Notes: generated by a model from the letters alone, not told the origin. 47,659 nt of DNA from a virus (IMGVR_UViG_3300026258_000006:1-47659), one strand, 5' to 3'; numbered from the stretch's first letter, positions 20,895 to 47,659 are shown. Numbers and translations are program-made.

Positions 20895-23800
20895 ATGTTC
20901 AAAGTATATACAGTAAATGGACAAGAGTATGAAGTATCTAATGAAAAAGAGTCCAAATTTTTACAGGAATTTCCTGATGCTGAGCTTATAGAAGACACTG
21001 TTTCAACCCCTACTGAAACAGTTACACAAGATGAAGTTGTGTCTACTCCTGAGGCTTCTTGGGGGTCATCTAGTTCGGAATTTGAAGATGCTTTTTTATC
21101 TCCTGATTATGGGAATACTAATTTTGAAGAAAATGCAGCGGGCACTCAAGGTATTCCTACTAAAAACCCTGTAAATTTACCTTCATATGGGGGTAAAAAA
21201 GATTTAACACCAGAAGCTTTATATAACACAGCTTTAGACGCTTATTATGATAGTAAAGACCCTACGGGTATAGCTAAATATGTAGCCCCTCAAATCGCTG
21301 GGTTTATTGGTGGTGCAGCAGATATTGTTAATGGGGTTAGTGAAGATATCCCTAAAGGTCTTTTAAAAGCTGGCATCGGGTTTTTTATGGATGACGAAGA
21401 TATAGACGAAGAGCACGAAAGAGATGCTTTAACTGCGTCTGTAGATGCTATGTATGATAGGTTTGGTGGACCTTTAAAAGGGTTGGGTGATATTAGTGAA
21501 TGGATTAGCGAAAAGTCTAGTAAATTAACTCGAAAAGCAGAACAAGGAAAAGACTTTGTTGATAATTTTAAAGAAGGTAATTACGCAGAAGGAGCTAGAA
21601 TGCTAACCCAAGATGTAACGAGTGCAGTACCATCACTACTTACAGCAATGATTCCAGGTGGAATTGGTATTTTAGGTGGAATTGCAGCTGCTGATAAATT
21701 TGAACAAGGTTATGAAGGACTAGAGGGAAAAGAGGATGATTGGTCTAATGTTTATAAAGCCGCAGCGACCGCTGGGTTAGTAGAAAGTGTAACAGCTTTA
21801 ACTACAAGGGGATTAGGAAAATCCACTACATGGGTAGCTAATAAAATGGGTGTACCTGCTGCAAAAAGTGTAATTGGACACTACGCCACTAAAATGGGGG
21901 CTGGTGCGGTTCAAGAAGGAATAGAAGAATCAGCGGCGGCTTGGGCTGATAAAGCTATTGATAAATATATGTTAGGCGATGAAAAAGCCATGGACAATGT
22001 ATATAAGGAAATGCGAAGACAAGGAATTGTTGGTAGTATTTTAGGTGTATTAGGCGCTGGAGGCAGTAGATCAGGTGGTAAAAAATTTAGTGAATTAACT
22101 AAAGAAGAAAAAGAATTATTAACTAACGGTTTACAACCTAGAGATTTATCTAGAAAGCAACGCGAAAAAGAAAAACAGATTGTAAGTAATTCTTTAAAAT
22201 TAAAATCACTAAAAGATGATCCAATTTTATACAAGGCCAAAGAAGAAGAAATTTTAAATGATTACAGAAGTTTACAAGAATCTAAACAACAAATAAATAA
22301 TCAATTTTCTGAATTATCTGAACCTCAGATACAAAGAATGCAAGAAATTTCTAAAGAATTAGGAGAATTAGATCTTTATACTTCTGAAATATCTAATACA
22401 GAAAATCAAGTAGAAACGGCTAAAAATAAAATTAAGCAATTAGAGCAAGAGCAACAAGATATATTTTTAAATCCGGATGGATTAGATATACAAAGAGCTC
22501 AACCGGTTTTAGAAGAAAACATAAAATTATCTAATGACACCCAAAAATTATACGGAGTTCCCGCGGGCAAAGATTCTGAAAAAGCTGAATTAAATAATAC
22601 TCAAATTGATGGAATTATTGATAAGCAATTAGGCCTCATTAATAAAACCGCTATTGAAGCAGTAGGTTCTTTTGGAAAAGAAGGTGATATTGCTGAAATG
22701 GTGAGTCAATTAAAATATGGGAAAGGTGGAATGGTTGATATGATTAAAACATATAATCCTTCTACAGGAGTTCCATTATCAGCTTATTTGGCAAATCCAA
22801 GAACGGGATTACCTCAAAGAGCAAAAAGGTTAGTTAAAAATGTTACTCAACAAGATGTATCATTAGATGAACAGTTAGGCACTCCTGAAAGTTTAGTTCA
22901 AGAAGCATTTGATACTAATTTTGATGTAAGTGTAGGTTCTAAACTTTTAGCTGATAGAATAGGTTTAAAACCAGAAACAATAAATCAAGCTAAAGATATT
23001 GTAGAAAAAGGTTTATTTAAGGCTGAGTCTAGGTTAATGGATAAAAATTTAACGCCTAAAAAAAGAATATCAGAAGCTAATAAAGCTTTTACTAAACCTT
23101 TTAAAGATAGAATTGCTAAAGATATTAAGGAAGTAATTGGTAAAGGAAAAGATTTTGATAATTTTGTTGATAAAAATTGGAAACCTATTGCCCAAGCTTT
23201 TATAGCTCAAAACCAAGTTTCTAAAGGAACTGGGGTAAGCAAAGAATGGGCTAAATTTCCGCCATCAAAAGATCAAGTTGTAGATTATTTTACTGGAAAA
23301 GATTTAAAGGTCGGAGATATAAGCCCTAGAACCGGTCAACCATTAACGGAGGCTCAAATAGGGAGAGCTATATCTACTAGAAAGACAAGAGCTTTGACAG
23401 AAGCTTTAGCTAGTCACATTGGTATTGAAGCAAGAAATGAATTTTTTAAAGATAATCCACAAATAAGAAAACAGTTTCAAGAGGATACTAAAATTCAATG
23501 GAAAGCTGATGCTAATGCTGTAAATGAAAAAGTCCAGCAGGAGTATTACAACAAACAAAACATTGTAAAAAATATTACAGACCCTAAGCCTGGTGTAGTA
23601 GCAAAATTTAAAGAGTTGGGAAAACAAGGATTATCTGCTCTTAGAGGAGGGAAAAAACTTTGGACTACTAAAAAAGCTACCCAATCCGATCTTAACAACA
23701 ATCCCCAATGGGCTGAAGCTGGTATTGAAATAGGTCATAATGTTTATAATGAATCTGATATAGAAACTCTTAAAGAACAATTAGGGAGTACAATTTCAAA

Positions 23801-26800
23801 AATACCTAAAAATTTAAGCGATATATTAGGTATTAATAACGTTTATGCGTTAGTTGGTAAAAAAAATAGAGCTTTTGATCCAGCTAAAGTAACAAAACCT
23901 AGTGTTTTAGATATAACCCAAGAAGATGTAATTGCCGAATATCAAAGTAAATATGATAGTGATTTATTTGCGGAAGAATCTGCAGAGTCAATTAGAAAAA
24001 GTTTAGGGGGATCTCCTAAATGGTTAGTAAGCGCTGATGGATCAGTAAAAAGAATAAAACCTGGTGATCCGGGAGTGGGGTATGAATTTTTTAAAGACAA
24101 AGAATCTTTAGCTAAAGATGTACAAGAATTATTTGATAAAAAACAAATAAGTAAAGAAAGCTATAATGAATACAAAAAAATTAATCTTGATAACGTCCAA
24201 TTACAAAATACCCAATTTAAGAAAAAAGGCACTTTATTAGGAGACGCTATAGATATAGCTAAATCTGATAAGTATAAAACAAAAGAAGAAAGACAAGACG
24301 CTTTTAATGAATTATGGCCTTCTGCTAAAATAAAGGCTGTTGGTGATGCAAATCATCAATTAATGAAATTTTATGTAAGTCTTTTAAAAAATGAATATAA
24401 AAACGGCAATCTTTCTGCAGATGCTTTAACAACTTTATTACAATGGCAAAGCAGTATTGTGGAAGGTTTTAGAAGTTTAACTGGTTTTAACGCTGTTTAT
24501 TTTACAGATGGACCAAGTAAAATAAATAAAGGAGAACATTTAAAACCAAATGCTTTAAGCATGGCTCAGCTGAAAAATAATATTACAGGAGCTCCTAATG
24601 CTAAAACTTTGGATGCAATTGTTAAAGGACATATGCAGGCTTTTGGGCCGAGTAAGTTATTTGATCAGGTTGATAAATTAGGAAAAACTACCGCTATGCC
24701 AGGTCTTGAAAGAATAGTTTTTGGTATAGGCCCAAATGAAGCAAATAATTTTTGGGATCCTTATACTAAAAAGACATTCACTCAAATGCGATTGGAGGAA
24801 ATGGCTAAACAAAAAGGAGTGGGAATTAATGAAGCTTATGCTCAATTATGGAATGAATACCAAACAGATGGATCTCTTGCTAGAACTATAGAAAGCACTA
24901 TAGACGTTTCAAAAATGAAAATGTATAAAAAAGCGCTTGATGAAAAAGCACCTCAATTAAATCAAGAAGAAACTAGCAAAGCTTTTGTAGATATACTTCA
25001 AGGTAATTGGAATAAAGACGGTGAAACTATATTAGAAGCATTTACTGATCCTAATGAAATGGTAGATGTTTTAATGAATGAATATGGTCAAAGTGATATT
25101 CAAGCTAAAGAAGGTGTTAAGCATTTTGGGTTTAAAATAGGAAATAAAATATTTATTAATTTAAAAGCAGGTAAAGGAGTAGAGACGGCTGTTCATGAAG
25201 CTGGTCATTTATGGAACAGCATTGTTCGTAATGGAGCTCCAAAAGTTTGGAATGGTATTATGTCTAGAGTTAAAGGAGAAGGCTTATGGGATAAATATGT
25301 TCAACAAATAGAGAAAAGCCCTAGTACGTATAGTGATATATTACAGTCTTATAATGATGGATCTAATACATTTGATTTAGAAAATGAAGTATTTGCAAGA
25401 ATTTTAGAAGAATATGGAAGTAATAAGGGTATAAAATCTAAAAGCAGTATTAAAAAGATTAAAGATATTATTGGTAAATATTTTAATCAATTAAAAACAA
25501 TGCTCGGTTTTGATCCTACTACTAAAAACTTTGGAGATTTAACTGTTAAAGAAATGATTGATTTAGCAGTATCTGAAGTAGTAACAGGGAATCCATTAGC
25601 CAATTTTTCTCAATTAAAAGATTCTCAAAATGAACCGTGGTTTGTTAAAACTCATCAAGAGGTTAGTCCAACTTTTAGAGCAGAATCTAATCCAGAATTT
25701 CAAGCCTTAAAGCAACTCCAAAAAGAATATAGGGATAATAATTATGATTTAACTAAAGCTATAGAAAATTCTTATCAGCAAGTAAAAAATATTATGCCTT
25801 TTGAAGATTGGGCTCAATTTGTTCAAAATACTATATCTGAAACTGATATTAAAACTGGAGAAACAATATCTGGTAAAGCTTTATTAGTAGCTAAAAAAGA
25901 TGCTATAGAAAACGAAAGGACTAGAGTAAAACAACTTAAAGTCTTAAGAGAAGCTGGTTTATTTAGTGAAGGCGATCAATTTTTACCAACAGAATTACTA
26001 AATGAAAAATTAAGAAAAGCTGACGATAATATTATAAAAACCAATAAAGAAAATTTCCAAAAAGAAGGTTTAAATAAAAATTTTAGAAAAATTTTAAATA
26101 GCAAACCGGCTAGAAGTAGTAAACCTTCAAGTTGGTTTATTCCTCCAAATGCAGAAGACATACAAGGCTTATTGTATTCTTTTCTACCTAAAGGGGCTGA
26201 AGGTAATAAAGCTAAAGAATTTTTTAATTCTACTATTTTAAAACCATATTCTGAAGGGGTAGCTGCATCTAATGCTGAAATTATTCAAAAAACTAAATTA
26301 TATTCTAAAGTATCTAAAGGAATAGATGTTAACAAAAAAATAAAAGGCACTCCGTATAATATTGGAGATGCTATTAGAGTATATAATTGGGTAAAAAATG
26401 GAGAACAAGTCGATATAAAAAAGCAAGAATATATTGATACTTTAATAGACGCTGTTGATGGAGATGTGGATCTTAAAAGTTTTGCTAATATAATTAATAA
26501 AGATTTCCCTATAGATTATAATGCAGAATGGAGACATGATAGTTTTAATAAGGCCATCTATGAAACCATCAACAAAAATACTAGAAAGCGTCATTTAGAA
26601 GTATTTGCTAGTAATGTAGATTCTATTTTTGATAAAGATAACATGCGTGAAATAGAAAACGTATATGGTAAAAAATTTGCTAGAGCTTTAGAAAACAGTT
26701 TAAGAAGAATGAAAACTGGTAAGAATAGAGTAAGTACAGACGCTCAGTCTAATAAATTTCTTACATGGGTAAATAGAGCTGTGGCTACAACGATGTTTGT

Positions 26801-28520
26801 TAACACTAGATCTGCTGCTTTACAGTTATTATCTTCTTTAAATTTTATAGGTAAACCTAATAATAATATTTTTCAAGCAACAGCTGCTTTAGGTCCAGGT
26901 TGGAGAAAAGATTTTAAAAAATTATGGAATAGTGATTATTTAAAAAATCGTAGAGATGGTGCTAAATTTGATGTATTAGCTGATGAAATGGCTGAAGGTG
27001 ATGTCAAAGGATTAAATAAATTATTAAAAGCAGGATTTTTACCTACAAGATATGCAGATAGTTTTGCTATAGCTATGGGAGGTGCTTCTTTTTATAGAAA
27101 TACCAAAAAAGCATTAATGAAAGAAGGTTTGTCAGAAACAGAGGCAGAAAATAAGGCTATGCAAGAATGGATAAATGCAGCAGAAGAGTCTCAACAATCC
27201 GCAGATCCTTCTAAAATATCTGAAATACAATCTAGTAATTTAGGAAAAGTAATTTTTGCTTTTGCAAATACACCATTTCAATATGTTAGAAAACAAAAAA
27301 GACATTTACAAGATGTTATTTCTGGTAGATCAGCTGCAAAGGGTGGAATGAATCAAGTAAGAAAAGATTTGCAAAGTGTTTTATACTATTCAGCGGGGCA
27401 AGCTTTATTATTTAACGGTTTACAATCCGCTTTATTTGTTGCGGCTTTTGAAGATGAAGATGAAGAAAAAGAGCCAATTACTATGAGGAAAGGCTCTAAT
27501 GTTGAGCACCCTAAATATGGAACTGGAAAAATTCTTAACTTAGAAGGAAGAGGTAAAAATAGATTTGCTACTGTTAAATTTGGAAATGAAACAAGAAAAA
27601 TTAGAATGTCTTTAACTAAAATGAAAGGCATACATCCAGATAAAGTAAATAAATTATCTCAGAGGGAAATATTAGCTATTGAACGTGCTTTAACTTCATA
27701 TGCTAAAAGTTTAGGAAATCCAGGTGCAGTTACTGCCGCTTTATATAGCGTAATGGCTGAAGCAAGTGAACAAATAGAGAAAAAAGGAAGAATAGATAAC
27801 GCTTATAAAATAGCACTAGAGGCTACAGCAATCTCTCCTCCTTTAAATGCAAAACTAAAAGATTTAGTTGCTATTGGTAATATTGCAAAATATAACTATA
27901 AAACTATAGAAGAGGATCCATTTAAACCCTCTTTAAAAAATCCTGTATTAGAAATAACTGGTAATGCAGCTTCTTTTGGTGGAGTTCCTTTAGATAGGGT
28001 AATTAGAAAAGCCCAAAATCTTTCTGCTATTGCTAATGAAGAGGCAGAAAATTGGCAAAGATTATTCTTGTTATTAGGGTGGAGTGATTGGGAATTAGGT
28101 GTTCCTGATTTAGAAGCTCGAGCTAGAAAAGAAGAAAAAGCAAAGAAAAAGAAAAAATCAACTAAAGTAAATTATGGTTGGGGAACTTCAAGTAGAAAAA
28201 GAAAAGGATCAACACCTAGCTATAAAAAAGAAGGTGGGGTTAAAATTCTAGGTAAAGCCCATAAAGACGGTACTATTGAAATAGCCCCAGGTTTATCCCC
28301 TGAAAAAAGAAGACAAGTTGAAGCCCATGAAAAGAAACATTGGAAAGATATGCAGGCCGGTAAATTAGATTATTCTAAAGATTGGGTAAGATATGGTAAT
28401 AAACATTATAAAAGAACTCCTGATAAAAAAATAGTTTATAATGGTAAAAAATATATAGAAGGGCATCCCAAACTACCTTGGGAAATTGCCGCAAATAAAG
28501 CAGAAAGACAAGTCACTTAA
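20895..28520 (+). CDS. giant polyvalent virion/ejection protein (two zincin-like HExxH domains, Tudor-like insert)
   Basis: 2541 aa; HEAGH at 25194 with downstream ENEVFAR; HEKKH at 28326 with PWE; VEHPKYGTGKI Tudor-like segment at 27483. Confidence 0.75.
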   Translation: MFKVYTVNGQEYEVSNEKESKFLQEFPDAELIEDTVSTPTETVTQDEVVSTPEASWGSSSSEFEDAFLSPDYGNTNFEENAAGTQGIPTKNPVNLPSYGGKKDLTPEALYNTALDAYYDSKDPTGIAKYVAPQIAGFIGGAADIVNGVSEDIPKGLLKAGIGFFMDDEDIDEEHERDALTASVDAMYDRFGGPLKGLGDISEWISEKSSKLTRKAEQGKDFVDNFKEGNYAEGARMLTQDVTSAVPSLLTAMIPGGIGILGGIAAADKFEQGYEGLEGKEDDWSNVYKAAATAGLVESVTALTTRGLGKSTTWVANKMGVPAAKSVIGHYATKMGAGAVQEGIEESAAAWADKAIDKYMLGDEKAMDNVYKEMRRQGIVGSILGVLGAGGSRSGGKKFSELTKEEKELLTNGLQPRDLSRKQREKEKQIVSNSLKLKSLKDDPILYKAKEEEILNDYRSLQESKQQINNQFSELSEPQIQRMQEISKELGELDLYTSEISNTENQVETAKNKIKQLEQEQQDIFLNPDGLDIQRAQPVLEENIKLSNDTQKLYGVPAGKDSEKAELNNTQIDGIIDKQLGLINKTAIEAVGSFGKEGDIAEMVSQLKYGKGGMVDMIKTYNPSTGVPLSAYLANPRTGLPQRAKRLVKNVTQQDVSLDEQLGTPESLVQEAFDTNFDVSVGSKLLADRIGLKPETINQAKDIVEKGLFKAESRLMDKNLTPKKRISEANKAFTKPFKDRIAKDIKEVIGKGKDFDNFVDKNWKPIAQAFIAQNQVSKGTGVSKEWAKFPPSKDQVVDYFTGKDLKVGDISPRTGQPLTEAQIGRAISTRKTRALTEALASHIGIEARNEFFKDNPQIRKQFQEDTKIQWKADANAVNEKVQQEYYNKQNIVKNITDPKPGVVAKFKELGKQGLSALRGGKKLWTTKKATQSDLNNNPQWAEAGIEIGHNVYNESDIETLKEQLGSTISKIPKNLSDILGINNVYALVGKKNRAFDPAKVTKPSVLDITQEDVIAEYQSKYDSDLFAEESAESIRKSLGGSPKWLVSADGSVKRIKPGDPGVGYEFFKDKESLAKDVQELFDKKQISKESYNEYKKINLDNVQLQNTQFKKKGTLLGDAIDIAKSDKYKTKEERQDAFNELWPSAKIKAVGDANHQLMKFYVSLLKNEYKNGNLSADALTTLLQWQSSIVEGFRSLTGFNAVYFTDGPSKINKGEHLKPNALSMAQLKNNITGAPNAKTLDAIVKGHMQAFGPSKLFDQVDKLGKTTAMPGLERIVFGIGPNEANNFWDPYTKKTFTQMRLEEMAKQKGVGINEAYAQLWNEYQTDGSLARTIESTIDVSKMKMYKKALDEKAPQLNQEETSKAFVDILQGNWNKDGETILEAFTDPNEMVDVLMNEYGQSDIQAKEGVKHFGFKIGNKIFINLKAGKGVETAVHEAGHLWNSIVRNGAPKVWNGIMSRVKGEGLWDKYVQQIEKSPSTYSDILQSYNDGSNTFDLENEVFARILEEYGSNKGIKSKSSIKKIKDIIGKYFNQLKTMLGFDPTTKNFGDLTVKEMIDLAVSEVVTGNPLANFSQLKDSQNEPWFVKTHQEVSPTFRAESNPEFQALKQLQKEYRDNNYDLTKAIENSYQQVKNIMPFEDWAQFVQNTISETDIKTGETISGKALLVAKKDAIENERTRVKQLKVLREAGLFSEGDQFLPTELLNEKLRKADDNIIKTNKENFQKEGLNKNFRKILNSKPARSSKPSSWFIPPNAEDIQGLLYSFLPKGAEGNKAKEFFNSTILKPYSEGVAASNAEIIQKTKLYSKVSKGIDVNKKIKGTPYNIGDAIRVYNWVKNGEQVDIKKQEYIDTLIDAVDGDVDLKSFANIINKDFPIDYNAEWRHDSFNKAIYETINKNTRKRHLEVFASNVDSIFDKDNMREIENVYGKKFARALENSLRRMKTGKNRVSTDAQSNKFLTWVNRAVATTMFVNTRSAALQLLSSLNFIGKPNNNIFQATAALGPGWRKDFKKLWNSDYLKNRRDGAKFDVLADEMAEGDVKGLNKLLKAGFLPTRYADSFAIAMGGASFYRNTKKALMKEGLSETEAENKAMQEWINAAEESQQSADPSKISEIQSSNLGKVIFAFANTPFQYVRKQKRHLQDVISGRSAAKGGMNQVRKDLQSVLYYSAGQALLFNGLQSALFVAAFEDEDEEKEPITMRKGSNVEHPKYGTGKILNLEGRGKNRFATVKFGNETRKIRMSLTKMKGIHPDKVNKLSQREILAIERALTSYAKSLGNPGAVTAALYSVMAEASEQIEKKGRIDNAYKIALEATAISPPLNAKLKDLVAIGNIAKYNYKTIEEDPFKPSLKNPVLEITGNAASFGGVPLDRVIRKAQNLSAIANEEAENWQRLFLLLGWSDWELGVPDLEARARKEEKAKKKKKSTKVNYGWGTSSRKRKGSTPSYKKEGGVKILGKAHKDGTIEIAPGLSPEKRRQVEAHEKKHWKDMQAGKLDYSKDWVRYGNKHYKRTPDKKIVYNGKKYIEGHPKLPWEIAANKAERQVT

Positions 28521-41696: not shown

Positions 41697-42479
41697 TTAA
41701 TCTTGATAAATTTTCAAATTTGTTGCTGCATAATTTAAAACATTAGACTGAGATTTAATATTATTAGTAGCAACAAAGAAAGCTAATTCATTAAGCGCGT
41801 CCTCGTTCATTTTAAGCTTATATAGAAGCCTTTGTTTTTGTTTTCTTACAGTTTCTACTCTAAGTCCAAAAAAGTGTGCTATATCGCGCATTTTTTTAGG
41901 TTTAGAATAAATGTCATCTAATCCATAGAACATTTGGAACATGACATAATGATTAGGCATATATTTTTTCAACCAGCCCTCTAAATATTCCCCTAACTTT
42001 TCATAATCATAATCGTATACTTCATCTTCTAAGATACTAAGTACATCGGAATCAAACCATTGAGGGAATAATACTGATATAAATCCAAAACCTGCAGAGT
42101 ATCTTTTTTTATCTTCGTTATTCCATATACCTTTAATTGGTTTACCAGATCCATCAATATTCATTTTGATTTGATCACTTAATAAGCCTTTGACGCTTAT
42201 AGCTAAGAATTTACTTATAGCTTTATCTTTATCTTCTTGAGACTCTAAAGTTTTAATATAATCCCAATTAATTTTACGCCAAGATCTTATTAATGCATAA
42301 TAAGCTTCTTGGTTAAGATCATTTATATTCATAATGCCAATTGCAGAATATTCTTTTGAAAAAGAATTTGCTATTTTACTAGCATTTTTAAAATAAACTT
42401 TAGGTATATTAGTTTCTTTAGAAATTTTCTCAAGTTCAAGCATATTAAGTTTATATATTTTTCTATTAAAATTCTTCAT
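41697..42479 (-). CDS. sigma-70-like transcription factor
   Basis: Region 2-like DLNQEAYYALIRSW; region 4 HTH FYGLDD...KKMRDIAHFFGLRVETVRKQKQRLLYKLK. Confidence 0.75.
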   Translation of the reverse strand: MKNFNRKIYKLNMLELEKISKETNIPKVYFKNASKIANSFSKEYSAIGIMNINDLNQEAYYALIRSWRKINWDYIKTLESQEDKDKAISKFLAISVKGLLSDQIKMNIDGSGKPIKGIWNNEDKKRYSAGFGFISVLFPQWFDSDVLSILEDEVYDYDYEKLGEYLEGWLKKYMPNHYVMFQMFYGLDDIYSKPKKMRDIAHFFGLRVETVRKQKQRLLYKLKMNEDALNELAFFVATNNIKSQSNVLNYAATNLKIYQD

Positions 42480-42691
42480 GTATTTAATAATTTTAATCTT
42501 CTACTATATTTTTTTATAAGCTTTGCTTTTGTCTTTAATAAATGTATAGGAATTCTATTTCTAGCTTCTCCTAATAATACTATATCTATTATTTCAGATC
42601 TATGTAACATTATTTGATCTATTAAATATTTTCTATGCTTAGAAGCTCTACTTTCAAAATCAATTCTTAGTTTTCCTATTTTTATTAGCAT
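42476..42691 (-). CDS. hypothetical protein
   Basis: 71-aa basic ORF overlapping the start of the sigma-like gene. Confidence 0.55.
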   Translation of the reverse strand: MLIKIGKLRIDFESRASKHRKYLIDQIMLHRSEIIDIVLLGEARNRIPIHLLKTKAKLIKKYSRRLKLLNT

Positions 42692-42784
42692 ATCTAGGAT
42701 TTTTTCTTAGTTCTTTTATTTTATCTGTAATACCAAATACATTATTTGATATTAAGTGTTTATATAATTTATATTGTGTCATAT

Positions 42785-42958
42785 TTAAAAGTTTTCCCAA
42801 AAGGGGTTATCAATTTTTTCTATCCAAGTTAAACCGTTTTTATTAAACCATAAATGCTTTTCTTTATCAAAGCTTTTAGGAATATTACTAATTGTATAAG
42901 ATTTAAACTTAATTCTTTTTACAGGTGCATCACCTATTTCTCTAAGAGTTTTTTCCAT
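42785..42958 (-). CDS. 57-aa hypothetical protein (not in ORF track)
   Basis: Hand translation MEKTLREIGDAPVKRIKFKSYTISNIPKSFDKEKHLWFNKNGLTWIEKIDNPFWENF. Confidence 0.55.
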   Translation of the reverse strand: MEKTLREIGDAPVKRIKFKSYTISNIPKSFDKEKHLWFNKNGLTWIEKIDNPFWENF

Positions 42959-43118
42959 TTTTCTTTTTTATAGTTAATCCTTGTTTACCGAAAACTTTAG
43001 TATATCCAAATTCATACCCGTCTTCTAATTCATATTTAATATTTTGTGCGCGTGGAATATTTGCTCCACCACCCATATACTTGGTTATCAAATATTTATG
43101 TATTGTTTTTTTATTCAT
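42942..43118 (-). CDS. hypothetical protein
   Basis: Start reassigned to MNKKTIH at the ligase stop; 58 aa. Confidence 0.5.
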   Translation of the reverse strand: MNKKTIHKYLITKYMGGGANIPRAQNIKYELEDGYEFGYTKVFGKQGLTIKKKNGKNS

Positions 43119-43974
43119 AATTTCTAACACATTTAAATAATGGGTGACGATAGGAGCCGGATGGAGTTCGTTGAAAATAAGTAAATGTGGCTTTTTTGCC
43201 AATGTACCATTCTGCAATATCATACATTGCAGCCATTATGGCGTAATCATCCATTACTGGCATCCCGAATTCTATACCGTGAGCGTCTCTCGCCAGAAAT
43301 TTTCCGATTGTGCCAGTTCTTTTGCCCTGACCTTCCACCCAGCCCGTGATCGTCGCCTCTGCGTCTTGGAAATCTTTAAATTTTTGTAAATTGTAACTTC
43401 TTTTTTGTTCATATGGTTTGTTTAATCTTATTATACTACCTTCATATCCTTGCTTAAGGAAATCTTCATGCCATAACTTAGCTGTTTCTATTATAGACAC
43501 TTCGTAAGTAGGTACTTGAACAATATGTCTTGAACTTAAATCTTCTATACTGCGTTTAATCATATCATTTCTATGTCTAAATACCGCCACATCATCTTCA
43601 AATCTAGTAAGAACGTAATCATACCAATGAAACTGAATATAGCGAGTTGCCTCATCAAGCTCTTTATTAGTTGGTTTTTGTTTTCTTACTAAAGATATAA
43701 TTTTATTAAAATTGTTTTTAAATTGATGATTATATAATTCCCCATCTACTATAAGATCAGGTAGTTTTTCAAATAAAGGTTTAAATGCATCTCTAATATG
43801 CTTTACAGTTTTAAATTCTTTATGGTTACGGCTAAATGCACCGTCTTTTGTAATATAGCATCTAACCCCATCAAGTTTTGGTTGTATAAAAGAATCTCTA
43901 TCAAATTCTTTTTTACCGTAAGGATGCGCTAGCATTACATTAAAGGTTGTCGTAGTCTTTTTTAATTTTGTCAT
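43111..43974 (-). CDS. ATP-dependent DNA ligase
   Basis: QPKLDGVRC (motif I), VDGELY, EGSIIR, KFKDF and YRHPLF motifs. Confidence 0.92.
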   Translation of the reverse strand: MTKLKKTTTTFNVMLAHPYGKKEFDRDSFIQPKLDGVRCYITKDGAFSRNHKEFKTVKHIRDAFKPLFEKLPDLIVDGELYNHQFKNNFNKIISLVRKQKPTNKELDEATRYIQFHWYDYVLTRFEDDVAVFRHRNDMIKRSIEDLSSRHIVQVPTYEVSIIETAKLWHEDFLKQGYEGSIIRLNKPYEQKRSYNLQKFKDFQDAEATITGWVEGQGKRTGTIGKFLARDAHGIEFGMPVMDDYAIMAAMYDIAEWYIGKKATFTYFQRTPSGSYRHPLFKCVRNYE

Positions 43975-44269
43975 ATATTTCTTTTAATTCTGATAATAAT
44001 TCGTATTTTTCTTCTTTTAATAATTCAGCCCATTTAATTTTGAGTTCGTGTAATTGGCCTGCTAATATTTCTTTTTTAGATGGTTTCCTTGGTGGTGTAT
44101 ATCTAATATTCCCGAATGCATCCACTTCTTTATCAAAAAATTCTTGGGGACCCATTGGTTCAAATGCAGTTAAAAACCCATTTTTAGTATTTTCAATATA
44201 TTCTTTAACTCTTGTAAAGACTTTATCTGCTATCATATCCGATAGCAATTCTAATTGATCATTCGTCAT
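43940..44269 (-). CDS. hypothetical protein (UVR-like C-terminal helix pair)
   Basis: 109 aa; LLKEEKYELLSELKE. Confidence 0.55.
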   Translation of the reverse strand: MTNDQLELLSDMIADKVFTRVKEYIENTKNGFLTAFEPMGPQEFFDKEVDAFGNIRYTPPRKPSKKEILAGQLHELKIKWAELLKEEKYELLSELKEIYDKIKKDYDNL

Positions 44270-44516
44270 ATTTATCTACTAATATTAAATTATACATATA
44301 GTCTAACATTTCTTGTTCGCGTTCGCATCCTTTAATTACTTGATCTATTTGCTCTTGTTGTAATCCAAATGTTGGGGATTTATCTTTCCATTTTATCCAA
44401 TCTTGATAAAGACTATGTTGTTTAGAGGAAACATGAGCTAAAGCTCGACCCCTTAAAGAGTCATATTCTTTAATATCCATTAATTGTTTTAATGCTTTAA
44501 TTTTTGCTTCTTTCAT
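44259..44516 (-). CDS. hypothetical protein
   Basis: 85-aa ORF overlapping its neighbours. Confidence 0.55.
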   Translation of the reverse strand: MKEAKIKALKQLMDIKEYDSLRGRALAHVSSKQHSLYQDWIKWKDKSPTFGLQQEQIDQVIKGCEREQEMLDYMYNLILVDKYDE

Positions 44517-44928
44517 CTGCTAATTTTAATAAAAGTTCTACTCCAGACATATCTTCTACAACATCTGGCTCATTATCTTCAAATGTTTCGTCATCTTCAT
44601 CTTCAATATCTGCTTCTATTTCTTTCCATTTATCTGCCCAATGGTAATTTTGAAATATTTCATCTATTGAGTCGATATACCACGTTTCATATGGTCTCTC
44701 TTGCATTTGTTTAAATAAAACTTCTGCAATAGTATCATTATACATATAAACGTCATGTTCCCAATCAATTTCATGGTTATGGTCTAAGCCACCATCATGA
44801 TTTATCATCCAAATGTCATAGCCATCTGAAGTAAGATTTTTATATACAGATAAACTACAGCCATTATGCCACGAGTCTTCTGTTAATTCTATATTATAGT
44901 GCTTTAGCACTTTCTCTTGGTAATTCAT
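44497..44928 (-). CDS. highly acidic early protein
   Basis: 143 aa, D/E-rich with many Trp/Tyr; first gene after promoter-like motif copy 1. Confidence 0.65.
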   Translation of the reverse strand: MNYQEKVLKHYNIELTEDSWHNGCSLSVYKNLTSDGYDIWMINHDGGLDHNHEIDWEHDVYMYNDTIAEVLFKQMQERPYETWYIDSIDEIFQNYHWADKWKEIEADIEDEDDETFEDNEPDVVEDMSGVELLLKLADERSKN

Positions 44929-44964
44929 TTTCTAATTCTCTAAATAATTCTTCTATTTCTTTTG

Positions 44965-45004
44965 TTATATTATCACTTTGTTCATCCATTTGTAACGTAT
45001 TTTT
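44965..45004 (-). promoter_or_regulatory. putative phage promoter, copy 1
   Basis: Minus strand AAAAATACGTTACAAA-N12-GTGATAATATAA, with identical boxes and spacing to 47367..47406. Confidence 0.7.
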
Positions 45005-45223
45005 ATAATTGATGATTTAAAATATGCATGACAATTTGTCGCGCATTTCCTGTTAGTGTCGTTTTGTCACCATATAAACCTGTGTATTTTAATTCATACT
45101 CTTTAGGTTGTAGTCTATCATATTCTATTGGGTTAAATTTATTTCCTGCCATAAAAAATTGTATATATTATTGTCATAAGTATTACTATGAACAATAGAG
45201 TTAATATTGCTTCTTTCATTGTT

Positions 45224-45382
45224 TTAACATATTACTTCAAAATCGAGTTCAACATCAGGTGGATAGTATTTAAGTATATTCTCTACTGCCGCATCCTGTA
45301 CATGAGGAGCAACTTGTGTATTTATCATATACTTTATTGTTTTACCTTTATGTTTTACTATTAGATATTCTAATACACTCAT
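45224..45382 (-). CDS. 52-aa hypothetical protein (not in ORF track)
   Basis: Hand translation MSVLEYLIVKHKGKTIKYMINTQVAPHVQDAAVENILKYYPPDVELDFEVIC. Confidence 0.5.
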   Translation of the reverse strand: MSVLEYLIVKHKGKTIKYMINTQVAPHVQDAAVENILKYYPPDVELDFEVIC

Positions 45383-45398
45383 ATTTTGATTTATTTAG

Positions 45399-45471
45399 TT
45401 GCGAGGGGAGGATTCGAACCTCCGACCTCAGGGTTATGAGCCCTGCGAGCTGGCCACTGCTCTACCTCGCT
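45399..45471 (-). tRNA. tRNA-Met(CAT), initiator (fMet) type
   Basis: AGCGAGG TA GAGC AGTGGCCA GCTC G CAGGG CTCATAA CCCTG AGGTC GGAGG TTCGAAT CCTCC CCTCGCA A; 1:72 mismatch, A11:U24 and three G:C pairs in the anticodon stem; no encoded CCA. Confidence 0.93.
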
Positions 45472-45477
45472 AAAAGT

Positions 45478-45612
45478 TAGGGGATTAACAGCCACGGTTT
45501 TCCATCCGATGGGAGTTACCTTAATTTGTTATCTCCAATATCACTGTTATCGCTTCAATGTCTGGCTTGCAGTCGTATTCTGATTCGCAAACATTACTTC
45601 ACTTTTCCCCTA
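45478..45612 (-). ncRNA. candidate structured ncRNA, about 135 nt
   Basis: Closed by a 7-bp terminal helix TAGGGGA/TCCCCTA; internal AGCCA/TGGCT, GGAG/CTCC, CCAT/ATGG and TTGC/GCAA complementarity; GC-richer than its flanks. Confidence 0.45.
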
Positions 45613-45618
45613 TATATT

Positions 45619-45677
45619 AAGGACCTCACCGGAGGTTTTATTCACCCGTGCACAGGTACACCGGTTTATTGGTCCTT
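45619..45677 (-). ncRNA. candidate 59-nt irregular hairpin RNA
   Basis: Nested helices AAGGACC/GGTCCTT, ACCGG/CCGGT and ACCTG/CGGGT. Confidence 0.5.
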
Positions 45678-45682
45678 TTTAG

Positions 45683-45760
45683 TGGACGTGGGAGGAGTCG
45701 AACCTCCGTTTGCTGATAGTGTACTTTCGAACTTTGTCAGCACTAACCAATTTCACGCCC
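45683..45760 (-). ncRNA. tRNA-like RNA resembling an isolated tmRNA tRNA-like domain (Ala identity)
   Basis: GGGCGTG/CACGTCC acceptor stem with G3:U70 and A73, stemless D-loop AAATTGGTTAG, helix TGCTGA/TCAGCA, AAC linker, T-arm GGAGG-TTCGACT-CCTCC. Confidence 0.75.
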
Positions 45761-45914
45761 TATTATATCTTATCCAATAATCTCTTTCAAATGCTTCAAT
45801 TTGAGCACTAGAAACTTTCATTATTTTAAATTTAGCTCTTTTTCTTGCTAAACCGTATAAGTCTTTTTTATTTACTATTTTATGTTCGTTTTCTATTATT
45901 TTATTTATATTCAT
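45753..45914 (-). CDS. 53-aa hypothetical protein whose stop overlaps the tRNA-like RNA
   Basis: Hand translation MNINKIIENEHK...DYWIRYNRA; the TGA stop lies in GGGCGTGA. Confidence 0.45.
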   Translation of the reverse strand: MNINKIIENEHKIVNKKDLYGLARKRAKFKIMKVSSAQIEAFERDYWIRYNRA

Positions 45915-45924
45915 TTTATTTATT

Positions 45925-46236
45925 TTAAGTTCCTGAATATGTCCAAGGATTATTTACACAATATTCGTTAATTGCTTTTTCTTGTTTTATTATATCAGGT
46001 AAATTTACTAATGTTTCTTGAATTGCATTTGCAGCTTCTGTTACATTATTCTGGTCTAAAATTTTAATTGTATGACCCATATTGTTTCTATATCTTAATA
46101 TTTTACCACCATAAAAATCACTATTTTCAAGTGAGAAATACCATTCGCCATTATGCTCTGCACTATAGCCAGTTATTTTATCATTTAGAAATTCTCTAAT
46201 GATATATTCATTTATTTTATTTCTTTTTACTGTCAT
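45925..46236 (-). CDS. hypothetical early protein
   Basis: 103-aa ORF. Confidence 0.6.
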   Translation of the reverse strand: MTVKRNKINEYIIREFLNDKITGYSAEHNGEWYFSLENSDFYGGKILRYRNNMGHTIKILDQNNVTEAANAIQETLVNLPDIIKQEKAINEYCVNNPWTYSGT

Positions 46237-46421
46237 AATTCTAAATTATCTGCTATTTTATATATTTCATCTAAATATTTAAGAGATTCATCTTTCCATT
46301 TGAAATTGTCTTGAACTTCAATGTTAGTTTTTACACATTTAGCTAATCCCATTATTTGTCCTATATTATATGCATTACTCATTTTAATATCTTTTTTTTG
46401 GTTCTTTTCCGTATAATTCAT
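46233..46421 (-). CDS. hypothetical early protein
   Basis: 62-aa ORF; the start may be the internal MSNAY. Confidence 0.5.
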   Translation of the reverse strand: MNYTEKNQKKDIKMSNAYNIGQIMGLAKCVKTNIEVQDNFKWKDESLKYLDEIYKIADNLEL

Positions 46422-46483
46422 CTAATAAAATATGAGCAACTTCGTCGCTTATCATATTTTCATTATATAATTTCCAAATTAAT

Positions 46484-46681
46484 TTACTCATTGTTTTCAA
46501 TTATATTAATTATTTTATCTTCCATTCCAACTATTTCATTGGCTAAATCAAGGATTTCATTTAATCCTCTTACTTCATAAGTACTTAATGCTTCACCACA
46601 ATCACTATCATGCAAAGCGTTTACTACATCACTTAAATCTCGTGCAGTATTTTCATATCTGCAATAACTCATATTTGCCAT
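46484..46681 (-). CDS. small phage protein
   Basis: MANMSYCRYENT N-terminus; acidic. Confidence 0.65.
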   Translation of the reverse strand: MANMSYCRYENTARDLSDVVNALHDSDCGEALSTYEVRGLNEILDLANEIVGMEDKIINIIENNE

Positions 46682-46693
46682 AATTTATTTATT

Positions 46694-46990
46694 TTATTTA
46701 TTTAAAAATTCTCTTGCCTCATTTTCATTAGAGACTTCTTCTTTAATATTTTCTAATATTTCATAATAATTAACTTCACTTAAAAAGGCATTTGCATAAG
46801 AATCTTTTAATAAATCTTCTTTTCTTTCATTACCTTCTCCAAATACAGCTTGTTCAACTAATTCTTCTAAATAACCAACAGTTAATTCATTAACAAATGG
46901 CTCTTCTACCCAATTATATTGGTCAATTATTTCTAAATTTACTCTCCAAGTGGCATAATTTGTCCACCCGTTGTATCCTTTATCACTCAT
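46694..46990 (-). CDS. small acidic phage protein
   Basis: YNGWTNYATWRVNL N-terminal motif; VNYYEI C-terminal motif. Confidence 0.65.
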   Translation of the reverse strand: MSDKGYNGWTNYATWRVNLEIIDQYNWVEEPFVNELTVGYLEELVEQAVFGEGNERKEDLLKDSYANAFLSEVNYYEILENIKEEVSNENEAREFLNK

Positions 46991-46996
46991 TTTTAT

Positions 46997-47266
46997 TTAT
47001 TTTAAATATTCTCTTGTATTTTTACTTTCATTTATAGTATATTCATGGAATAATTCTTCCATAATAGTCTTTTTTAAATAATTTGAAGCATCATTAAATA
47101 ATTCATTAAAAATTACTTTTTTACCACTAGCGGTTTTACTCATTCTATATAATTCTTGTACTAATTCAGATTCATCTAAATTCCATTCAACAATTCTGTC
47201 TATTTCTTTGACTAATTCCTTTTTGGTTTTGTCAACTAATAGTCTTAATTCTTTACTTTTACTCAT
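46997..47266 (-). CDS. hypothetical early protein
   Basis: Start reassigned to MSKSKEL (A-rich leader); the listed start at 47314 lies inside the minihelix RNA. Confidence 0.6.
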   Translation of the reverse strand: MSKSKELRLLVDKTKKELVKEIDRIVEWNLDESELVQELYRMSKTASGKKVIFNELFNDASNYLKKTIMEELFHEYTINESKNTREYLK

Positions 47267-47280
47267 TTTATTTATTTTAG

Positions 47281-47321
47281 TTGAGTAGGTGAGAATCGAA
47301 CTCACATTAACCATTTACTCA
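47281..47321 (-). ncRNA. tRNA minihelix (acceptor stem plus T-arm, no D or anticodon arm)
   Basis: TGAGTAA ATGGTTAAT GTGAG TTCGATT CTCAC CTACTCA A, followed by CTA. Confidence 0.7.
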
Positions 47322-47366
47322 TTTGTCTGTTCGTTTAAGGAAAAAACACACTTCAACACCTATTTA

Positions 47367-47406
47367 TTATATTATCACAAATTTATTTTATTTGTAACGT
47401 ATTTTT
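47367..47406 (-). promoter_or_regulatory. putative phage promoter, copy 2
   Basis: AAAAATACGTTACAAA-N12-GTGATAATATAA; lies about 45 nt upstream of the minihelix. Confidence 0.7.
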
Positions 47407-47659
47407 GTTAAAAAGTTTGAGACCATTCAAACATTCCAACTAACCATAATGGTACCACTATTAGTGAACCACCAATTTTTATAATTAATTCAGTCATATT
47501 TCTATTTTTAAGTTAAACATTTATTTTAATTCAAATTAAGTAGTTCATCCATTTTATTAACTACTTCATTTCTTATCCATTCTTTATTTCTTTCAGATAA
47601 TAAATCATAACCATCACAGTCAAAATTATTTCTTGCATATTCATATAAGAATAGACCTA

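Follow-up and report, generated by a model that had tools for sequence, protein, structure and literature searches.

What would a phage gain from transfer RNA (tRNA) shapes that have lost their decoding half? The question is raised by three small elements in the viral stretch IMGVR_UViG_3300026258_000006:1-47659, which was analysed over its full 47,659 nucleotides (nt) and is referred to below as the window. On its minus strand lie an initiator-type tRNA-Met, the head of a transfer-messenger RNA (tmRNA) without its tag-encoding portion, and a minihelix of only 41 nt consisting of an acceptor stem and a T-arm. They sit among small open reading frames (ORFs) in the most upstream part of the minus-strand block, a stretch we take for the early region. 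The initial annotation took them for a candidate system of graded tRNA mimics that may serve as decoys for tRNA-targeting defences or ribosome-rescue factors, or as processing tags that cut early transcripts. The reading we favour, with confidence evenly divided for and against it, is the last of these: the two anticodon-less elements would be marks at which host RNase P and RNase Z divide the early transcript. What the sequences themselves show are the shapes of the elements, their covariation, their positions between genes or small structured elements, and, at one junction, their replacement by true tRNAs.

Both strands of the window were scanned for a TTC[GA]AN[TC] loop closed by a stem of at least 4 of 5 pairs. 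Ten sites were found, and all five pairs form at only three, which are exactly the named elements. All three are on the minus strand, and in each the T-arm is followed by 7 nt, an A, CTA and an A-rich run, so that the co-orientation, perfect 5-bp (base-pair) T-stems, shared A-CTA ends and A-tracts originally described are confirmed. The linkers of the two non-canonical elements, AAATGGTTAAT and AAATTGGTTAG, likewise match the D-loop remnants ascribed to them. The acceptor stems are present too, but that of the minihelix has only 6 bp, with an A.C mismatch where pair 7:66 would be, and that of the tRNA opens with an A1.A72 mismatch.

The tRNA (45396-45471, minus strand) is recognised by ARAGORN and by RF00005, scoring 65 bits with the latter against a gathering threshold of 29. 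Initiator tRNAs are marked by a 1:72 mismatch, an A11:U24 pair and three G-C pairs in the anticodon stem; as all of these are present, we class the element as an initiator-type tRNA-Met(CAT). It is an ordinary member of the phage-carried bacterial initiator tRNA-fMet genes (RF00005), from which it differs by the A1.A72 mismatch and by an encoded CTA in place of CCA.

The minihelix (47278-47321, minus strand), recognised by the T-loop scan and by covariation in relatives, is built of an acceptor stem of 6 bp, a linker of 10 nt that includes GG, a 5-bp T-arm with the loop TTCGATT, one unpaired C, the discriminator A (47281) and CTA, and it lacks both D-stem and anticodon arm. Rfam offers no family for it beyond a T-arm fragment. 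Its fold energy is not significant by itself (z -1.30), so that its reality rests on covariation in relatives. Viral contigs were scanned with a pattern that fixed the linker core, T-arm and tail and left acceptor pairing free, returning 117 loci. Together with the window copy these represent 74 distinct matches, of which 8 were set aside as ARAGORN tRNAs and 66 were scored. At the register of the window, 44 of the 66 pair at all six positions, and at each of 11 other registers 0-3 do so. The 44 paired copies (with 3' strands shuffled, 4.1 on average and never more than 11) comprise 22 different stems, with compensatory, two-sided changes at all six pairs and a covariation score of 0.681 versus 0.159 in shuffled controls; this set was selected for pairing and is biased accordingly. 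An independent metagenome scan demanded no pairing and yielded at least 119 loci, with about 840 such stretches estimated in the collection from one strict pattern. Here 103 of 115 scorable copies pair 6/6 at the same register and none at the 11 others. They reduce to 61 distinct cores (38 of them new), 53 with perfect pairing and 8 with 5/6, in 18 stem types; shuffles averaged 6.2 and reached 14 at most. These results indicate that the acceptor stem is under selection for pairing, with the stem sequence itself free.

The same data bear on whether the elements are decaying pseudogenes, or DNA leftovers such as an attachment site derived from the 3' end of a tRNA or tmRNA. The distant relative phi38:1 does carry a full-length tmRNA, and the fold energy of the minihelix is unremarkable. 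On the other hand, compensatory changes occur at all six acceptor pairs in the selected set and pairing recurs in the unselected metagenome set; an attachment site would not need a covarying 5' strand, and no integrase was found among the 43 proteins scanned from this contig, estimated to be 74% complete. Decay or an attachment site is thus the least probable account that we considered, and the viral and metagenome pairing sets largely refute it. The claim that selection rather than decay has shaped these elements is borne out by the relatives of both the minihelix and the tmRNA head.

Free variation of the stem extends to amino-acid identity. The alanine determinant G3:U70 appears in 2 of 44 viral and 1 of 53 metagenome minihelices, from which it follows that the minihelix keeps no amino-acid identity; compared with tRNA and tmRNA families, it has neither an anticodon arm nor G3:U70. 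The absence of the anticodon arm also weighs on the proposal of decoys for anticodon nucleases. PrrC, RloC and AriB cut the anticodon stem-loop, which is precisely the part missing from both the head and the minihelix, and with their cut site gone this role is very improbable and the original suggestion poorly supported, even though phages do counter tRNA-targeting defences with tRNAs of their own (bioRxiv 2024.07.05.602228).

The family looks phage-borne. Pattern matches in cellular genomes number 10, of which 7 are minihelices carried by short assembly contigs with proteins matching those of the phage loci, 2 are tRNA-Leu-like genes and 1 is ambiguous; a minihelix model applied to 101 Flavobacteriaceae genomes matched only the contig already known. 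The same model gave no convincing copy in phi38:1, phi18:3, Gundel_1, elemoF_6-3D or MW202828, hence no cultured carrier among these five, the best match (E 0.006) being the 3' end of the full phi38:1 tmRNA. When the whole region and the single elements were compared by BLAST with cultured phages, only tRNA or T-arm fragments came back. No description of such a phage minihelix was found among the titles, abstract openings and text passages searched, a coverage that mostly excludes subscription papers; nor was the T-arm motif, sought in DNA letters only, found in the searched part of the supplements to PMC10690425, the rest of which may hold it.

The second anticodon-less element, at 45680-45760 (minus strand), is a tag-less tmRNA head. 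RF00023 aligns to it with 34.6 bits (E 2.8e-11; fold z -2.69), covering both tmRNA ends in their standard order with 33 nt where about 326 are usual. The tmRNA-like domain of the initial annotation is therefore present as a tRNA-like domain, but the score stays under the gathering cut-off of 47, ARAGORN calls no tmRNA, and the mRNA-like domain with its tag frame and pseudoknots is absent. The head has a 7-bp acceptor stem with G3:U70, the discriminator A73, CTA, the loop AAATTGGTTAG, and a 6-7-bp P2 stem capped by a 20-nt loop, followed by AAC and the T-arm; it is, in other words, a tRNA-like domain closed by a short P2 with no tag frame. A permuted two-piece tmRNA was considered and rejected, since the halves stand in the standard order and RF04321 scores 16.3 bits against a threshold of 47.

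A pattern scan for heads returned 56 viral loci, from which 7 3' ends of full tmRNAs and 1 tRNA-Gln were left out after a check of 15 loci that included all 8 suspects. The window and the fetched loci (L001-L202) together hold 65 distinct heads, 46 in AT-rich and 19 in GC-richer loci. Among the AT-rich heads G3:U70 is present in 43/46, a count to be read with the restriction of position 70 to C or T for loci from the 56-locus scan; A73 is kept in 44/46, P2 reaches 5 bp or more in 42/46 (shuffled mean 20, maximum 29), and the middle section spans 33-94 nt. The loop reads GG..AG in 39/46, and AAC precedes the T-arm in 41/46. In host tmRNAs (29 parsed of 30 loci) the loop ACTGGTTTTGA and GAC before the T-arm occur in 29/29; the phi38:1 tmRNA has the same combination, as do, with small variants, most full-length phage tmRNAs.

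Several observations on individual heads may be added. Two stand back to back with zero spacer at L013:6977-7158, and L052 pairs one head bearing G3:U70 with another bearing G3-C70. The 19 GC-richer loci (L022-L071) are unrelated viral contigs whose heads have G3:U70 in 19/19 and a more host-like loop, closer to the type known from mycobacteriophage DS6A.

This conservation suggests a reading centred on the head, in which it inhibits or rewires trans-translation through SmpB titration or tagless ribosome release, as proposed for DS6A, with the minihelix a further reduced form. The retained G3:U70, A73 and P2 speak for it, as do accounts of the DS6A-type tag-less RNA acting as an inhibitor of the host tmRNA in E. 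coli (PMC4131195, PMC11915505). Intermediates between head and minihelix also fit: minihelices whose stem is GGACGT (L016, L070) and others that contain an inserted segment (L018, L082), which suggest that the minihelix may have arisen by shrinkage of a tmRNA head. Yet SmpB contacts tmRNA at A15, U17, G19 and A334 in the loop region (PMC8363625), and there the A before the final C is kept in the heads while the host GA/GAC has become AG/AAC in this lineage. With the loop and AAC changed at these contacts, SmpB binding by the head is uncertain, and its titration is less secure here than for DS6A; a precedent for a ribosome-rescue decoy, DS6A, exists for the head alone, and the minihelix has no alanine identity. 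We regard the trans-translation account as unlikely for the set as a whole. A DS6A-like rescue effect of the head can nevertheless coexist with a tag role: the head keeps its alanine identity and is probably also charged, and on these grounds a second role, exerted at the ribosome or on rescue factors, is likely for it. Mao et al. 2009 is reportedly the primary paper on the DS6A RNA.

That the two elements serve as cutting marks was the third option of the initial annotation, and it fits best on the strength of upstream pseudoknots, exchange at a junction and downstream spacing. Mechanistically, the linker GG would pair with the T-loop to form a tRNA elbow. RNase P would then cut at the 5' end, leaving an upstream RNA that ends in a pseudoknot in most relatives, or releasing a short leader in the window; RNase Z or trimming would act after the discriminator, followed by CCA addition. 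The 3' cut would free a downstream mRNA with an A-rich leader of 13-15 nt or, between head and tRNA, might instead free small RNAs. The minihelix would on this account be a pure shape tag without amino-acid identity, like mascRNA or the plant t-elements, and it does display a conserved acceptor/T-arm shape between RNA units with a free stem sequence. RNase P is able to cleave acceptor/T-stem hairpins (PMC11143913) and measures from the elbow regardless of sequence (PMC4919913).

Upstream of the minihelix, an H-type pseudoknot ends no more than 7 nt away in 49 of 73 distinct contexts, against 68 of 365 dinucleotide-shuffled controls. Thirty-four pseudoknot leaders were used to build a profile, which gave 42 distinct matches. 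A minihelix follows immediately in 33 of these, and 8 of the remaining 9 lead, as judged by eye, to a tRNA-shaped element either directly or through a second pseudoknot; among distinct metagenome leaders the profile matches 59 of 90. At one junction the element is exchanged for true tRNAs: after a single orthologous gene, not present in the window, 22 distinct junctions were compared, of which 7 carry tRNA-Met, 2 tRNA-Gln, 2 a tmRNA head, 1 a head lacking G3:U70, 2 a minihelix and 8 no tRNA-shaped element. Downstream, the commonest position of the next ATG is 11-12 nt past CTA (17/82 at 11 nt in the viral set, 29/93 at 11-12 nt in the metagenome set), a spacing that keeps adenines at -12/-13, which aid initiation in Flavobacterium johnsoniae (PMC6847099).

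The pseudoknots form a family of about 48 nt with an A-rich last loop, sometimes as a tandem pair (L013:5077-5125, L104, L111, L134, L101 and about 45 other leaders), and Rfam has no match for them. The possibility that they mimic type III antitoxin RNA found no support, the ToxN family, the only one covered, exceeding its cut-off in 0 of 301 Flavobacteriaceae genomes.

Several facts weigh against the cutting-mark reading. The minihelix helix has 11 bp, or 11 plus a mismatch, where a tRNA has 12, and most copies begin with U or A, on account of which RNase P may cut it poorly or off register. The window minihelix has no recognisable pseudoknot upstream: the leader at the usual position (47322-47362, minus strand) scores 0, with a profile E of 42, and its pseudoknot is absent or degenerate. 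The coupling to pseudoknots comes from a biased sample, as minihelix leaders supplied the profile and minihelices were the anchors around which most loci had been collected. Since 8/22 junctions are empty, a cut there is dispensable, and the exchange may be due to the usual reshuffling of cassettes in the early region. In 9 of 93 metagenome contexts the first open ATG overlaps CTA. Finally, a sequence-free stem also fits a diversifying decoy.

The last point leads to the strongest rival, in which minihelix and head, once released and CCA-tailed, act in trans as decoys for acceptor-end toxins (toxSAS FaRel2/CapRel, GNAT, MenT) and the stem tracks toxin specificity. Synthetic minihelices are pyrophosphorylated by FaRel2, which recognises acceptor pairs 1, 2, 4 and 5 (bioRxiv 2024.07.05.602228), and both the placement in the early region and the diversity of stems (22 and 18 types) suit such a role. 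But there are usually only one or two minihelix copies per locus, most stems are rich in A-U pairs and open with U1-A72 or A1-U72, whereas FaRel2 prefers G1-C72 (same source), and a decoy leaves unexplained why the pseudoknot upstream and the ATG downstream lie at the distances they do. We therefore hold toxin decoys to be possible but on the whole doubtful. A composite picture may be offered more tentatively than the cutting marks on their own: a widespread clade of flavobacterial phages would carry a cassette resembling MALAT1/mascRNA, in which a 3'-protective or independently active pseudoknot RNA is joined to a natural 41-nt minihelix derived from a tmRNA head; host RNase P and RNase Z would cut it and so punctuate the early transcript, and the CCA-tailed minihelices would double as decoys for CCA-end toxins.

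Tight spacing to the start codon might also indicate that the elements act uncut and in cis, by antitermination, by pausing or by keeping the next start site open, and in the window, L004 and L107 the element is indeed promoter-proximal (44-56 nt). A plain hairpin, however, needs no invariant T-loop, linker GG, discriminator and C74, which are what tRNA-processing enzymes read, though as the search patterns fixed these letters their invariance is partly by design. Such a cis device appears improbable to us.

The encoded 3' ends can be compared with those of the probable hosts. The terminase and portal of this AT-rich contig match 87 records, nearly all of them phages of Flavobacterium (elemo), Cellulophaga, Tenacibaculum and Maribacter (28-63% identity among the matches listed), and it is on this basis that a flavobacterial host is inferred. 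In four Flavobacteriaceae genomes a T-arm pattern forcing C-N-A gave 79 matches, read from the resulting table as CAA 45, CGA 16, CCA 10 and CTA 8, and CCA is encoded in 1 of 29 host tmRNA genes. Given that host genes mostly lack an encoded CCA, the phage RNAs would need trimming and CCA addition just as host tRNAs do. The CTA end, once singled out as a special signature, is then best regarded as a habit of this phage group and not a sign of mimicry. The trio itself also dissolves as a fixed set: among 36 minihelix loci with at least 3.5 kb downstream the companions vary, with a tmRNA head within 4 kb in 21, an initiator tRNA in 14 and both in 11.

Comparison with known systems helps to place the elements. 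The TLD-only (tRNA-like domain only) tmRNA of mycobacteriophage DS6A and the plastid and mitochondrial tmRNAs without a coding sequence (PMC4131195, PMC11915505) share with the head both tmRNA ends in order, G3:U70 together with A73, a P2 that is short, and the lack of a tag frame; the head appears to differ in having GG..AG/AAC instead of GG....GA/GAC, in not encoding CCA and in being clustered with other structured elements. The mascRNA and menRNA of MALAT1 and MEN-beta (PMC4919922) are small tRNA-shaped RNase P/RNase Z tags after the structured 3' end of an upstream RNA, and the minihelix is similarly placed; it differs in belonging to a phage, in its 41 nt, in the predicted H-type pseudoknot upstream and in the ORF directly after it, and its cleavage is predicted. 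Plant mitochondrial t-elements (PMC1920247) are non-decoding tRNA-like structures at mRNA ends, proposed as cis-signals for RNase P/Z, and resemble the phage elements, which are, in contrast to these organellar structures, a length-conserved family with covariation. Synthetic minihelices made of acceptor stem and T-arm, which have served as substrates for RNase P and toxSAS enzymes (PMC11143913; bioRxiv 2024.07.05.602228), have the same geometry, whereas the phage minihelix is natural and genome-encoded, with a GG linker of 10-13 nt, a 6-bp stem and no amino-acid identity. The tRNA is ordinary, the head is a drifted variant of the DS6A kind, and the minihelix would, on the cutting-mark reading, work like mascRNA or the t-elements while being a member of neither.

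Were it true, phages would be using very small tRNA shapes as cutting marks for host enzymes; such a device is described in organelles and in long RNAs of mammals, and none was found for phages in the literature searched. The minihelix would also be a minimal RNase P substrate of natural origin, for which a covariation series is already at hand. The family is common and is missed by Rfam and ARAGORN, and the more than 60 tag-less tmRNA heads make the role of DS6A-type RNAs testable.

The surroundings of the elements offer further detail. About 44 nt before the minihelix lies a promoter-like repeat (47363-47406, minus strand; TACGTTACA..GTGATAATAT), whose promoter role is inferred, and a second copy, 80% identical to the first by repeat comparison, occurs at 44961-45004 (minus strand). 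Similar repeats are found in relatives, with six copies in L008. Within the first copy, 47378-47385 (minus strand) holds TAAATTTG, fitting the Bacteroidetes -7 consensus TANNTTTG, which the second copy does not; a generic sigma-70 scan was not above chance (33 found against 37.9 expected). An 89-amino-acid ORF (46997-47266, minus strand), with weak family matches only, starts 11 nt after the CTA of the minihelix. A 53-amino-acid ORF (45753-45914, minus strand) has its TGA stop at nt 6-8 of the tmRNA head, so that the stop lies inside the acceptor stem (45753-45760) and a 5' cut would leave a non-stop mRNA. As a conserved outcome of cutting the head this was rejected, the arrangement being seen in 1 of 44 scorable heads.

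A structured hairpin follows a few nt past the CTA of the head (45621-45675, minus strand; fold z -2.26). It is conserved, with related elements at L007:195, L008:8917 and L014:1; across the family the outer stem is GGACC/GGTCC or GGGCC/GGCCC, a changed pair, and the hairpin adjoins either tRNA-Met, just before it, or a head, just after it. A possible second structured block (45478-45610, minus strand) is weak (fold z -1.18), ends 6 nt before the tRNA and has no clear homologue among the fetched loci. With the hairpin following the head and the weaker block preceding the tRNA, tRNA-type cuts would neatly release small structured RNAs. In the relatives L003 (8027-8230), L005 (4066) and L006 (1469), what precedes tRNA-Met at a distance of a few bases is a different element, one with several stems. 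Y RNAs, another proposed check, gave no family at E <= 10 in 42000-47659, nor at gathering score anywhere in the window.

As to the rest of the contig, terminase, portal and virion genes occupy the plus strand, and replication genes with many small ORFs the minus strand. For 45000-47659 no data set holding RNA was listed, and two runs of unclear type proved to be contigs from a single sample, which carry no information on expression. Pfam gave no informative match for 13 proteins, mostly from early-region ORFs. A 2541-amino-acid ORF (20895-28520, plus strand) matches nothing in PHROGs or Pfam; its size and position recall the virion RNA polymerases of related podophages. Two further tRNA-shaped families were observed among the fetched loci. 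One, also without an anticodon arm, has an AACTAG/CTAGTT acceptor and a conserved CTAC-YGACG-RGTA before the T-arm (L020:2889, L087, L099, L104, L109, L117, L125, L144, L148, L149, L030). The other, from the same phage group, combines a GGGTAA/TTATCC stem with a long insert (L025:1208, L055:5772, L146:1015).

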